Shown here: positions 3,941 to 58,591 of the stretch, one piece after another
How positions within the stretch are numbered: position 1 is the stretch's first letter
Layout of the letters: every line of letters starts with the position of its first letter
DNA from: Escherichia phage Ecwhy_1
Strand: one strand, 5' to 3'
Length of the DNA stretch: 64,000 nt
Sequence record: MH791411.1
Translations under genes and position numbers: made by a program
Notes under the pieces: model-generated
Told to the model about the DNA's origin: nothing
The model's input: the letters and a program-made list of their open reading frames with translations, nothing else
Database searches by the model: none

Positions 3941-4164
3941 GATTTTATTCCTTAATATACCAGGGAGAACCATTCCCCCTCTCGATATAAAACATTATAC
4001 TTGATTCTAAGTACAATGCAAGTACTTTTTTAAAAATAGTTTTCAGTACTGAATACTTATATAATAGATACACTTCCGCACCCTATGGGTCAGTGAGTTA
4101 TCTCTCAATGGATATATAATAGCAAAGGGACTGACCGGAGTCAATCCCTTTTTTTAATCTTTTT

Positions 4165-7262: not shown

Positions 7263-7432
7263 AAACATTATACTTGATTCTAAGTACAATGCAAGTACTT
7301 TTTTAAAAATAGTTTTCAGTACTAGCCACCAGCAAACAATAGATACATTTATGCACCCTGTGGGCTAATTTGTTTCTATGCGTATATAATAGCAAAGGGA
7401 CTGACCGGAGTCAATCCCTTTTTCAAATATTT

Positions 7433-8052: not shown

Positions 8053-8135
8053 TTTTCTTTCCTCTTAGTGGGGAGAATCATTTCTCCCCTTCATGTAAAC
8101 TATTATACAGTACTGGATTGCATTGTCAATAGTTT

Positions 8136-8753: not shown

Positions 8754-9110
8754 CTATGATAAAATCATGATAGGATATTCACTATCTATCAATACCTCGA
8801 ATCCGAAACCTTCGTACCATTCTTTAAGATTAAAGGCGTTATCTTCTCCCGTATCGCATTCTAAGATGATACAATCTGAATCATCGGCGGCATCAATAAA
8901 GGCATTCATTAATTCGTTACCTTCACCATTGCCCCGACTATCAGGATCAACATAAAGAGAATCAATAAACGCTACACGGTCATAATCAAGATCCGGTGCA
9001 ATGATTCCACGTTTAACAAACCAGTACTGCAATTGTGCTACTTTGCCCTGTACTTGATAGCCAGTGATCTCGCCATTGTCAGTAGTACGCGTGATATGTT
9101 GTATTCCCAT
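8754..9110 (-). CDS. GNAT-like acetyltransferase (118 aa), tentative
   Basis: Motifs RGNGEGN (R-x-x-G-x-G) and NAFNLKEWYEGFGF resemble GNAT motifs A/B; SD GAGGATAG. Confidence 0.45.
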   Translation of the reverse strand: MGIQHITRTTDNGEITGYQVQGKVAQLQYWFVKRGIIAPDLDYDRVAFIDSLYVDPDSRGNGEGNELMNAFIDAADDSDCIILECDTGEDNAFNLKEWYEGFGFEVLIDSEYPIMILS

Positions 9111-9173
9111 GATTACTATCCTCAGTTAAGATATAAAACATTATACACTATCTTTCAGTACTGTCAATACTTT

Positions 9174-9431
9174 TTATCTCATAGATCTATGCCAACAATT
9201 ACGCGGATCTCTTTTAAAAGTACTATCATGATCCTCCTGGCAAGTAATACAATACATGCACCCTATAACGGCCTGGCGTCGATTCTCAGGGATTTTATCG
9301 CCGCAGTCGAGGCAATGTACAAGTGATTCTCTTTGTGCGTTAATTTGCTTTCTAGCGTGGTTAACGGCGGCCTGAATCACTGCATGAATCTCGTCTTGTT
9401 CGGCCCCGTCTTTCGCGTATCCTACTGCCAT
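9174..9431 (-). CDS. TraR/DksA-like C4 zinc-finger protein (85 aa)
   Basis: C-x2-C...C-x2-C with CGDKIPENRR; SD GAGG. Confidence 0.55.
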   Translation of the reverse strand: MAVGYAKDGAEQDEIHAVIQAAVNHARKQINAQRESLVHCLDCGDKIPENRRQAVIGCMYCITCQEDHDSTFKRDPRNCWHRSMR

Positions 9432-9589
9432 TATTTTAACCTCATTATAAAAATACTATAGTACTGTAATGCTACAATAATACTACTAGTGTTTATCTTA
9501 TTCAAACCATATGATACTACATATCCACCAGCATTACCACGAATAGTAACGCCTTTGTACTGTCTATATAAATTCAACTGCGTATATTG

Positions 9590-9668
9590 CCTTTGATCAA
9601 GAATTGATCAGAATTATACGCCTTATGCTAAATTGATCCAGTACTTTTTTGATCATTTATTGATCGAT
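9590..9668. repeat. cluster of five TTGATC motifs (GATC sites)
   Basis: TTGATCAAGAATTGATCAGAA..AATTGATCC..TTTTTTGATCATTTATTGATCG. Confidence 0.5.
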
Positions 9669-9760
9669 ATTATATAGTTACATTTGTGCACCCTATGGGT
9701 TAGTGACGTTCTCGTCTTGATGTAAGTATTATGCCAGTACTGGAGGATATTGTCAATAGA

Positions 9761-9964
9761 TTATTTTAATTTTTTTCTGTCATTGATTAATGCTTTCAGT
9801 ACTATACTAATAACTTGCAATGATTCATCAATGACAATGAAATTATTCTCTTTCATTAGATGATAGTTACCATTGATTGTATATTCTAACGAGTACTGTT
9901 TACGTTTAATTTTTGATAATGTTTCTATTTGTTTTTGTACTGATTTCATGCTAATCATTGTCAA
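9761..9964 (-). CDS. hypothetical small protein (67 aa)
   Basis: ORF; weak SD AGGA. Confidence 0.45.
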   Translation of the reverse strand: MTMISMKSVQKQIETLSKIKRKQYSLEYTINGNYHLMKENNFIVIDESLQVISIVLKALINDRKKLK

Positions 9965-10064
9965 ACGTCCTGTAACGCATTCTAACGAGATAAACGGTTT
10001 AGTACTGGCATTGTATAGGGTAAATGATTAAAGCCCACCAGCGTTAACCAGTGGGCTATAATAT

Positions 10065-10208
10065 TACATCTTGCGGATAATCTTAACAGTATCTTTCACC
10101 GATTTACCGTTTTGCTGACATTGCTCGATCATCGCGTATTGTTCTGCGGTCAGATCCTCGCCAGTTTTTGCCAGTACTGCGTCGATGAATGAATCCAGTG
10201 CGATCATT
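10065..10208 (-). CDS. hypothetical small protein (~47 aa, not in track)
   Basis: TTGACA-N17-TATAAT, SD AAGAGAGAAAT, ATG; coordinates approximate. Confidence 0.35.
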
Positions 10209-10297
10209 TTATTTCTCTCTTAGGTTAAGTTAACTACTGTTTATAAAACTTATTATACAGTACTATCAATCTATGTCAATAGTACTGGTAATATATT

Positions 10298-10477
10298 TTA
10301 GCGGTAGTCGTCGTATGCTTTATTCACCTGGCGAATATAACTTTCAAAGGCTTCGTCTACCGTTTCATACTCCCGAACATAATCACCATATGAAACTACA
10401 TACATACCTTTTTGATCTTCAAACGTCATGATGATAGAATCCAGACCAACGATTTCAGTTTTTGCGATGATAGCCAT
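10298..10477 (-). CDS. hypothetical small protein (59 aa, not in track)
   Basis: TTGACA-N17-CATAAT, SD AAGGAA, ATG. Confidence 0.4.
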   Translation of the reverse strand: MAIIAKTEIVGLDSIIMTFEDQKGMYVVSYGDYVREYETVDEAFESYIRQVNKAYDDYR

Positions 10478-10560
10478 TTTTTAATTCCTTAGTAGTGTAG
10501 TTGATAAAAGTTATTATGTCAGTACTATCAAACTATGTCAATAGTACTGTGATAATATTT

Positions 10561-11211: not shown

Positions 11212-11663
11212 GATTTGTTTCCTTATTACCAGGGGAAACCGTTTCCCCCTCTCGATGTAAAACATTATACGCTTATTGAGATAGTTTGCAAGTACTTTCT
11301 ACAAATACTTTTAAAATAGTTTTCAGTACTCAATACTCATATAATAGATACACTTATGCACCCTGTGGGCTAGTGAGCTATCTCTCAATGAATATATAAT
11401 AGCAAAATGGCTGACCGGAGTCAACCACTTTTTTCATTTATTTTTAGCTTTTAGAATCGCCGCCTTTCGCGTCATGCCTTGCTTGATGTATTCTTGTACT
11501 TTCGCTTTACGTGCATTCGCTTTATTTGCTTTCGTAAATGCCGAACAACTTTTATAGTTTAAACCTGTTGGATTCATTTAAATCACCATAAAGAATAGAT
11601 AGGTTACTAACAACGCCGCGATCAATGCACCGACCAGGGCCGAACTATAGTAAGCTAATGTTT

Positions 11664-16039: not shown

Positions 16040-16148
16040 TTTCTTATTCCTTAGTTACCAGGGGAACCGCTCCCCCTATGCAAAACATTATACGCGTTTA
16101 AAAACTAATTGCAAGTATTTTAATAAAAAGTATTTGAAAAATAGTTGT

Positions 16149-16290
16149 TGACAAGTGCATCCAGTACTGGCATAATTACTACATCAAGACGAAACAGTCA
16201 CTAACCCACCGGGTGCCGAGATCCGTCTATTAAATGATTCAGTACTGAAAAAGTAACGGGGAGTTATTATCTCCCCGTGTTGTTATTTTG
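16149..16290 (+). ncRNA. candidate small RNA: + strand promoter plus about 100 nt ending at a bidirectional hairpin
   Basis: TTGACA (16149)-N17-CATAAT; leader ACATCAAGACGAAACAGTCACTAACCCACCGGGTGC; hairpin GGGGAG..CTCCCC at 16256-16278 + T-rich; no ORF. Confidence 0.35.
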
Positions 16291-18478: not shown

Positions 18479-18557
18479 AAAACATTATACGCCTTTAAAC
18501 ATAGTTTGCAAGTACTTTTTAAAAATAGTTTTCAGTACTGAATAGTAAAAAAAAGTA

Positions 18558-18650
18558 TTGACAGCATTATCAAGTACTGGTATAATATACCCCATGACAA
18601 CAGCTAACCCACCGGGTGCACAATTGTAACTATACTAAACTAATTTTTCT
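18558..18650 (+). ncRNA. candidate small/antisense RNA from a + strand promoter
   Basis: TTGACA-N17-TATAAT then AACCCACCGGGTGCAC; convergent with a - strand promoter at about 18700-18735. Confidence 0.3.
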
Positions 18651-18760
18651 ATAGATACACTCCCGCACCCTATGGGCTACGGCTTATCTGCCAATGAATA
18701 CATTATGCCAGTACTGACAAAATAAGTCAATACCGGCAATTGTAAAGATTTGTAAACTGC

Positions 18761-20706: not shown

Positions 20707-20800
20707 TTGCTTTATTTTTCCAGTACTGTATAATAGTTCCATCAAGTCGAGAAAGACTCAAGCCCACCGGGTGCATAGTTACGCCCAAAATTCAGTACTG
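20707..20800 (+). ncRNA. candidate + strand transcript in the non-coding region
   Basis: TTGCTT..TGTATAAT (extended -10); leader CCATCAAGTCGAGAAAGACTCAAGCCCACCGGGTGC. Confidence 0.3.
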
Positions 20801-58296: not shown

Positions 58297-58366
58297 ATTA
58301 CACCTCCGTAAAATAATGTTCTGTACTGCTATTATTTACAGAGAATATCTGAAAAATTGATCTAGA

Positions 58367-58591
58367 TCAATTTTTAGTCACTTTACAATTTGAATCTTTT
58401 TTGTACTGAACAATCACATTGTTCTTAAGGAAGATGATGGTCCCATAGGAACCTTGGGCTGCAACTTCAACAATATGGTTCTTATATGTTTCAGTATATC
58501 CTTCCATCTCGTTGATACACACTACATGATACTTTGGTTTAGCACATACAACAGTACTCAAGAATAGCAGTACTAGTACTAGATATTTCAT
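58367..58591 (-). CDS. secreted protein (74 aa), predicted signal peptide
   Basis: N-terminus MKYLVLVLLFLSTVVCA; SD AAGGTAATAA. Confidence 0.55.
   Translation of the reverse strand: MKYLVLVLLFLSTVVCAKPKYHVVCINEMEGYTETYKNHIVEVAAQGSYGTIIFLKNNVIVQYKKDSNCKVTKN

Follow-up and report, generated by a model that had tools for sequence, protein, structure and literature searches.

GATC is the recognition site of the Dam methylase and of SeqA in enterobacteria. E. coli methylates GATC, and both Dam and SeqA are present in E. coli and Salmonella. Promoters with clustered GATC sites that are controlled by Dam and SeqA include dnaAp2, lambda promoters, IS10 pIN, Mu mom, pap and agn43. GATC-rich repeats also form origin cores, as in the oriC 13-mers and the five GATC heptamers of P1 oriR, and are found in the pac site of P1. 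Cleavage at P1 pac is Dam-dependent and involves PacA/PacB, and its hexamers are arranged as four and three flanking a cleavage region of about 90 bp. PeSL cassettes were reportedly described by Arbiol in 2010 and Comeau in 2014. SeqA binds pairs of hemimethylated GATC sites, and in vivo it prefers a spacing of about 10 or 20 bp, with the sites less than 50 bp from each other (PMC2912659). Repression of dnaAp2 by SeqA is about 10-fold, and lambda promoters are also acted on by SeqA (PMC2912659; PMC5145175). The P1 pac site contains seven TGATCA/G hexamers (PMC10028697). PeSLs, or promoter-early stem-loops, are mobile regulatory cassettes of T4-like phages (PMC4122927).

The stretch of DNA analysed here, referred to as the window, is 64,000 nucleotides long and belongs to an Asteriusvirus jumbo coliphage of the 121Q/PBECO4/fEgEco12 group. 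Positions 9000 to 10500 match Escherichia phage fEgEco12 with 100% identity, and 121Q, PBECO4 and other Asteriusvirus with 91-99%. Outside this region small insertions and deletions are found relative to fEgEco12, which is a near relative and not identical throughout. Window positions 1 to about 20,900 correspond to a direct terminal repeat of about 21 kb, which is densely packed with small genes, all on the minus strand, and has a higher GC content than the rest of the genome. The vB_Ec-M-J record annotates a repeat of 21,525 bp. PhageTerm analysis and restriction digests placed the physical ends at the boundaries of a 20,993-bp terminal repeat (PMC13070987). The hosts of the relatives are all E. 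coli or Salmonella. Genome-wide counts were made on fEgEco12 loci together with the window, about 354 kb in total, with the pieces analysed separately. A scan of the whole window against Rfam at gathering thresholds gave no matches.

A first-pass annotation of the window had pointed out five TTGATC motifs, clustered within about 75 bp, in a 330-bp gene-free interval. All five are present, in the same orientation on the plus strand (Table 1). Site #1 is a palindrome, TTGATCAA, and therefore scores on the minus strand as well. The start-to-start distances between the GATC cores are 11, 29, 16 and 11 bp. The 330-bp interval is gene-free only in part. No large open reading frame is found between 9432 and 9761, but the minus strand contains a conserved 48-residue reading frame, and the non-coding stretch proper measures 183 bp (9578-9760).

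Table 1. Features of the TTGATC array, the cassette that carries it and the flanking genes (window positions).
Feature	Position	Strand	Sequence or description
Array	9593-9665	TTGATC on plus, GATCAA on minus (gene strand)	Five WTTGATCV sites, from sequence
Site #1	9593-9598	plus	TTTGATCAA
Site #2	9604-9609	plus	ATTGATCAG
Site #3	9633-9638	plus	ATTGATCCA
Site #4	9649-9654	plus	TTTGATCAT
Site #5	9660-9665	plus	ATTGATCGA
Unit a	9592-9618	minus	27 nt; TATAAT-tct-GATCAAT-tct-TGATCAAA; P2b -10 and sites #2, #1
Unit b	9648-9674	minus	27 nt; TATAAT-atc-GATCAAT-aaa-TGATCAAA; sites #5, #4; P2b UP-element region
P1	9728-9756	minus	Predicted sigma-70 promoter; TTGACA-17-CATAAT with TG; 11/12 matches
P2b	9613-9650	minus	Predicted sigma-70 early promoter; AAAAAAGTAC-TGGATC-16-TATAAT
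P2b UP proximal subsite and AGTACT	9650-9641	minus	AAAAAAGTAC
P2b -35	9640-9635	minus	TGGATC; coincides with site #3
P2b -10	9618-9613	minus	TATAAT; 16-bp spacer to -35
Cassette	9430-9759	minus	330-bp insertion/deletion; P1, E, TTGATC array/P2b, g029
g028	9761-9964	minus	Upstream gene, 65-67 aa, from gene maps
g029	9431-9577	minus	48-aa gene; PHROG 38664 match; stop overlaps g030 ATG (TAATG)
g030	9174-9431	minus	DksA/TraR-type C4 zinc-finger protein; PF01258, E 3.7e-9; PHROG 54
E	9674-9706	minus	33-nt repeat copy, TCACTAACCCATAGGGTGCACAAATGTAACTAT
E copies	1317-1344, 4064-4096, 7339-7371, 9674-9706, 11344-11376, 18647-18683	minus	
E copies	~16195-16230, 18600-18634, 20750-20785	plus	

The high local density of GATC noted in the first pass is highly significant, both against shuffled sequence and in a genome-wide count. 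In 1000 dinucleotide-preserving shuffles of window positions 1-21000, the number of TTGATC/GATCAA words per 75 bp never reached five, with a maximum of three in three shuffles. At least five bare GATC sites per 75 bp were found in 1 of the 1000 shuffles. The GATCAA-N5-GATCAA pair occurs in the array only, and five matches with at most one mismatch were found against 0.37 expected. The GATC density is 1.1-1.8 per kb in the unique genome of about 333 kb (observed/expected, O/E, 0.35-0.56) and 4.2 per kb in the terminal repeat (O/E 1.2). The array, with five sites in 71 bp, exceeds the terminal repeat about 17-fold and the rest of the genome about 45-fold. It is the sole place in about 354 kb with at least four GATC in 75 bp, and the sole place with at least three TTGATC in 100 bp. 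The TTGATC word is otherwise not enriched (29 in the window, 39 expected). A scan of viral contigs with GATCAATNNNTGATCAAA, a pattern ill-suited to this purpose, gave mostly unrelated chance matches, and a 31-mer of the cassette matched 121Q alone. Neither of the two conditions named in the first pass as refuting holds, since GATC is enriched relative to the genome and the host, E. coli, is Dam+.

Palindromes are avoided in this genome to an extreme and region-dependent extent, as counted in the window and loci L001, L009 and L134-L138. GCGC is absent from about 354 kb (about 350 expected), and so are CGATCG and GGATCC (34 expected each). GATC, CCGG, GGCC and CGCG have an O/E of 0.3-0.5 in the unique genome and of 1.06-1.34 in the terminal repeat, where GCGC is still absent. 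The sole other close TTGATC pair in the window lies at 58352-58375, in a perfect 24-bp palindrome (AAAAATTGATCTAGATCAATTTTT) between two minus-strand genes. It overlaps the stop codon of a 74-aa reading frame (58367-58591) and holds an FNR-box-like TTGAT-N4-ATCAA. From its sequence, this palindrome could be an AU-rich bidirectional terminator or an operator.

Analysis of the surrounding sequence revealed two predicted sigma-70 promoters on the gene strand. P1 is a strong predicted promoter located directly after the g028 stop codon. It is nearly invariant across 14 relatives and would read through the array. The second, P2b, is located within the array and resembles the early promoters of the terminal repeat. 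A -35-like hexamer precedes TATAAT at 26 minus-strand sites of the terminal repeat. Twenty-four of them share the arrangement aaaaAGTAC-TTGCAA/TTGACA-16 bp-TATAAT-gttttacat-GC-rich hairpin, and are referred to as canonical. A position weight matrix (PWM) was built from these 24 and scored on both strands. P2b scores 10.2 bits and ranks 40 of about 42,000 positions (top 0.1%), below 23 of the 24 canonical promoters. None of the plus-strand positions in the array region is in the top 100. P2b has the family pattern of aaaaAGTAC, a -35, 16 bp and TATAAT, with a -35 that is weak (3/6) in haplotype A, the allele found in the window. It lacks the downstream gttttacat and GC-rich stem-loop of the family. 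In haplotype A tctGATCAAttcTTGATCAaagg stands in this place, and in haplotype B an unrelated sequence.

The five sites are distributed over the whole of P2b. Relative to the predicted start at about 9606, the centers of the GATC cores are located at about -57 (#5), -46 (#4), -31 (#3), -2 (#2) and +10 (#1). The core of site #3 falls inside the predicted -35 hexamer, the predicted start is within site #2, and the predicted UP region is overlapped by GATC sites as well. Since the array coats the predicted early promoter from about -60 to +12, we interpret it as an operator. Our main reading of this locus, to which we assign a probability of about 0.65, is a regulatory array of some kind that is associated with a promoter. 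The TTGATC cluster would be a cis-regulatory operator array over P2b, and P2b would drive a small accessory operon of g029 and g030, a DksA/TraR-like modulator of RNA polymerase. A protein that occupied all five GATC cores would cover the whole promoter.

The canonical promoters have two additional features. The AGTACT palindrome occurs 131 times in window positions 1-21000 against 6.8 expected, a 19-fold excess, and 286 times in the whole window; examples are at 9645-9640, 9741-9736, 10259 and 10281. In the terminal repeat it occupies two fixed places in promoters, AGTAC-TTGCAA at the -35 and AGTACTG-TATAAT. No mention of it was found in the searched papers on these phages. Almost all early promoters have a GC-rich hairpin (GGGGAGAnnnnTCTCCCC) 12-13 nt downstream of the -10, which places it at the mRNA 5' end. 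Examples are at window positions 8107, 10833, 11872 and 12101, and the G17 record annotates the same hairpins as terminators. The arrangement of hairpin and promoter matches the PeSL composite promoter-terminator motifs of T4-like phages (PMC4122927). As in PeSLs, a near-consensus sigma-70 early promoter is followed by a stem-loop and precedes most small genes of the hyperplastic region, and the modules are tied to insertions and deletions of single reading frames between close relatives. Unlike PeSLs, the modules of this phage carry the AGTACT signature. The cassette described here also differs, being bounded by a 10-bp microhomology in coding sequence and not by two PeSLs, and P2b has GATCAA repeats in place of the canonical GC-rich hairpin.

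The array contains two 27-nt units of the common form TATAAT-nnn-GATCAAT-nnn-TGATCAAA. They differ at six positions, and all six are in the two 3-nt spacers. If mismatches were placed randomly, such confinement would be expected in 1 of 296,010 cases. The pattern speaks for constraint at the positions of the motif. The TATAAT of unit b (9674-9669) was considered as a second promoter and rejected; it has no -35 and is outside the top minus-strand PWM scores of the region.

The comparison covered 14 cassette sequences, which form three haplotypes. Haplotype A (the window, 121Q, Turkey3, vB_Ec-M-J, CMSTMSU and TH47) contains five TTGATC. Haplotype B (PBECO4, slurp01, JP4, E9.1, BF17, SP27 and UB) contains three TTGATC and one GATC. 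Sites #1 and #2 are absent from it, site #4 has lost the TT and kept the GATC, and a new TTGATCA is located 11 bp from site #3, regenerated through four changes within 5 nt. Haplotype C, represented by two metagenome contigs, contains three TTGATC (#3-#5) and is recombinant, its left part being of type B and its right part of type A. About seven positions are variable within haplotype A, none of them in a TTGATC, and no GATC is lost within any haplotype among the 14 sequences. The conserved word is WTTGATCV, in a single orientation in eight of the nine site instances. GATC spacings are 11, 29, 16 and 11 bp in A, 11, 5 and 11 bp in B, and 16 and 11 bp in C, and the 11-bp pair of sites #4 and #5 is present in every haplotype. 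The distance between sites #3 and #4 ranges from 14 to 16 bp among relatives, with a T-run of T4 to T6 between them, and strict geometry is therefore not kept there. Turnover has kept the number and core of the sites and not their exact placement, which agrees with a reader of loose geometry. All haplotypes share the same P2b -10. Haplotype B has an improved -35, TTGATC, and has lost the upstream A-run, as would be expected of compensation at a working promoter.

These alleles also bear on whether the array has a dedicated function at all. In a hyperplastic early region, local duplication, slippage and gene conversion may act on AT-rich promoter fragments, and the array might be a by-product of this, with TTGATC persisting as -35-like or UP-like sequence. 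The haplotypes, one of them recombinant, are a mosaic of recombining alleles, as this explanation would predict. The units resemble 11-bp and 56-bp duplications, the cassette is bounded by microhomology and missing from some relatives, and the terminal repeat is full of repeated, PeSL-like promoter modules (PMC4122927). However, neutral copying does not readily account for unit differences that all avoid the motif positions, for the regeneration of TTGATCA in haplotype B, or for the retention of every GATC within haplotypes. In addition, GATC is almost never found in the canonical promoters of this phage. We therefore regard a neutral origin as distinctly unlikely.

The repeats may instead act as RNA, or drive transcription in the other direction. 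In the P1 transcript of haplotype A, the GAUCAA repeats include a 7-bp hairpin, UGAUCAA-UUC-UUGAUCA, just upstream of the g029 Shine-Dalgarno, and haplotype B has an equivalent elsewhere. However, the position of the hairpin is not conserved and haplotype C does not have it, leader fold energies in two haplotypes are indistinguishable from those of shuffled sequences (z of -1.6 and -2.2), and no Rfam family matches. On the plus strand, TTGATC-18-TATAGT matches the promoter consensus at 9 of 12 positions and is the sole plus-strand match, but no plus-strand site is among the top 100 of the phage matrix. Both an RNA element and an antisense promoter with TTGATC as its -35 appear very doubtful.

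The array, P1 and g029 are located on a cassette of 330 bp. The borders of the cassette are formed by a 10-bp direct repeat, TTAAAATAAT on the minus strand, at 9439-9430 and 9769-9760. Relative to the window, phAPEC6, UE-S1 and G17 lack exactly 330 bp, and in them the homologue of g028 directly abuts the DksA-like gene. The GATC density in the terminal repeat of G17 is normal, and no substitute cluster is found there. The cassette is thus dispensable, and any function it has must be accessory. The g029 gene is annotated in 121Q, PBECO4 and fEgEco12. It is probably a real gene, because the reading frame and similar residues are kept in the PBECO4 allele at about 60% DNA identity and the product matches PHROG 38664. 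A single-sequence AF2 model of low confidence indicated one long hydrophobic helix. We considered g029 as an autoregulator of the array and rejected it on the grounds of that model and the lack of any Pfam family or match beyond the PHROG. The g029 product and the 59-aa product of g026 (10298-10477, minus strand) share a G-YVVSYG motif, with a pairwise BLASTP E value of 7e-4, and may represent a family of tiny early proteins. Homologues of g030, which is downstream of both predicted promoters, are found in 293 phage records.

The cassette also carries one copy of the E repeat, which has the form TCACTA(R)CCCAYMGGGTGCAYAARTGTAWCTAT and is always located about 22-25 nt downstream of a -10-like hexamer. 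Its core, CCCAYMGGGTGC, has nine copies in the window, none of them outside the terminal repeat, and seven in positions 1-26000 of G17. It is absent from 291 kb of the remaining fEgEco12 genome. A consensus RNA structure search of the E repeats revealed no covariation. Two other E locations were noted. On the plus strand at 16148-16290, TTGACA-17-CATAAT is followed by an E repeat, AGTACTG, GGGGAG..CTCCCC and a T-rich run. This apparent small unit is antisense to genes and could encode an sRNA of about 100 nt; it has no Rfam matches. At 18546-18745, two promoter-plus-E units face each other, the plus-strand one from about 18560 and the minus-strand one from about 18745, with E repeats about 12 nt apart. 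This arrangement might give convergent transcription or form an inverted pair of putative protein sites.

In sequence, the nearest look-alike of the array is P1 pac, to which it bears a superficial resemblance. Four of the five sites read TGATCA (three) or TGATCG (one), they form small groups 7-16 bp apart, and they contain GATC methylation sites as in pac. GATC-rich origin cores, known from oriC and P1 oriR, are similar in another way, with five short GATC-containing repeats in about 70 bp of AT-rich DNA. Local GC is 26%, and the array is close to the midpoint of the terminal repeat; in fEgEco12 its distance from the left end is about 11.3 kb. A core of a replication origin of the oriC 13-mer or P1 oriR heptamer type, a pac-like packaging site, or a stop signal for DNA injection might therefore be considered, and an origin-like element was among the first-pass suggestions. 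The comparison with relatives does not bear this out. The whole cassette is absent from phAPEC6, UE-S1 and G17, without a replacement in G17, which makes an essential origin, pac site or injection signal at the array very unlikely. The AT content is ordinary for intergenic DNA here. The nearest DnaA box with one mismatch is about 400 bp from the array and the window-wide count of such boxes is that expected by chance; no other repeat family is found near the array except for the promoter-linked E element. Unlike origin cores, the array has no initiator boxes or iterons, is not conserved among relatives and is located inside a transcription unit. An 11-mer shared with the mioC flank of oriC (TGATCAAGAAT) was dismissed as chance, as matches of equal length were found in 21 of 320 control windows. 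In contrast to P1 pac, the five sites lie within 73 bp and are not arranged as four and three, no genome end is found at the array, which is 11 kb away, and the terminase genes are T4-like by annotation, not PacA/PacB. The physical ends are instead at the boundaries of the terminal repeat (PMC13070987). As a group, these roles are extremely unlikely.

The operator reading leaves two plausible kinds of reader to be weighed. The first is a sequence-specific protein of the phage or host that binds WTTGATCA half-sites on the same helical face, whether or not they are methylated. It would act on P2b as a repressor or an activator, and might for instance switch the cassette off once the early phase is over. 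Conservation extends beyond GATC to the 5' W-TT, a preference for A on the 3' side and a single orientation, and the direct repeats have an 11-bp period, which is typical of cooperative binders. A 20-mer, TTGATCAAG(A/T)ATTGATCAGA, is identical at 19 of 20 positions between haplotypes A and B; it covers the start in A and the -35 in B, and both positions would repress. However, this palindrome is missing from haplotype C, and no candidate regulator was found. The product of g029 has no family beyond its PHROG and a low-confidence hydrophobic helix, and DksA/TraR proteins bind RNA polymerase and not DNA. The motif pair has no second occurrence in the genome, which would leave the regulator with one 330-bp accessory cassette as its sole target. 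We consider a specific binder of this kind doubtful. The consensus sequences of IHF (WATCAANNNNTTR) and FNR (TTGAT-N4-ATCAA), compared by eye on both strands, do not fit the array, because its repeats are direct or everted.

The second reader, host Dam/SeqA, is slightly favored over a sequence-specific protein. The nearest functional analogues of the array would be Dam/SeqA-sensitive promoters with clustered GATC sites such as dnaAp2. Similar to these, the array has several GATC sites in and around a predicted core promoter, with pairs about one helical turn apart, in a host with both Dam and SeqA, and a link between replication state and transcription is plausible. The 11-bp pair found in all haplotypes agrees with the spacing preferred by SeqA (PMC2912659). 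The array differs in that its motif is an oriented heptamer and not bare GATC, in that no OxyR/Lrp-type site for a competing regulator is recognizable, and in that it belongs to a dispensable early cassette of a lytic jumbo phage. The conserved WTTGATCV, which exceeds GATC, is evidence against Dam/SeqA, as these proteins need neither the flanks nor a single orientation.

The phage itself may contribute to methylation. The product of g162 (L009:41064-41588 in fEgEco12) matches PF05869, the profile of phage N6-adenine methylases in the Dam family, with an E value of 6e-33, and is labeled in the record as a 'type I restriction-modification methyltransferase subunit'. The related phage Sharanji has an annotated N6-adenine methyltransferase (PMC11895373). 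Another gene, g455 (L134:46992-47336 in fEgEco12), encodes a C5-cytosine methylase. A third, g271, is annotated as 'SAM hydrolase' without Pfam support; such an enzyme, if real, could limit methylation during infection. The papers searched contained no methylome for any Asteriusvirus and no expression data.

A methylation-sensitive regulatory region, as the first-pass annotation had suggested, is the most plausible reading of the putative function of the array. The likeliest reader would be host Dam/SeqA, possibly together with the phage Dam-family methylase. In the mechanism that we propose, we infer the firing of P2b, the methylation of its sites, the binding of SeqA or another protein, and the direction of the effect. 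Incoming DNA would be fully methylated, leaving the promoter free. Newly replicated DNA would be hemimethylated, and SeqA, binding cooperatively to GATC pairs in helical phase, would keep RNA polymerase out, as it does at dnaAp2. The cassette would thereby be expressed according to the replication state. This specific Dam/SeqA mechanism is tentative, at somewhat less than even odds. A broader proposal is a replication-coupled epigenetic switch in a lytic jumbo phage, in which the Dam/SeqA-read array would confine expression of a TraR/DksA-like modulator and its small partner gene either to incoming genomes that are unreplicated and fully methylated or to replicated genomes, and would be carried on a mobile 330-bp promoter-plus-gene cassette moving among Asteriusvirus terminal repeats. 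We offer it as a speculative and rather unlikely extension.

As an accessory element with a putative function, the array is of limited practical consequence. The analysis also maps a regulatory grammar of the terminal repeat, with AGTACT-marked early promoters that carry 5' hairpins, the E repeat and cassettes bounded by microhomology. This grammar is not described in the Asteriusvirus genome papers that we found. Natural alleles with 5, 4, 3 and 0 sites make the methylation reading easily testable. If methylation is indeed what is read, the array would be a compact case in which a virulent giant phage uses the replication state of its DNA to time an early gene for host takeover.
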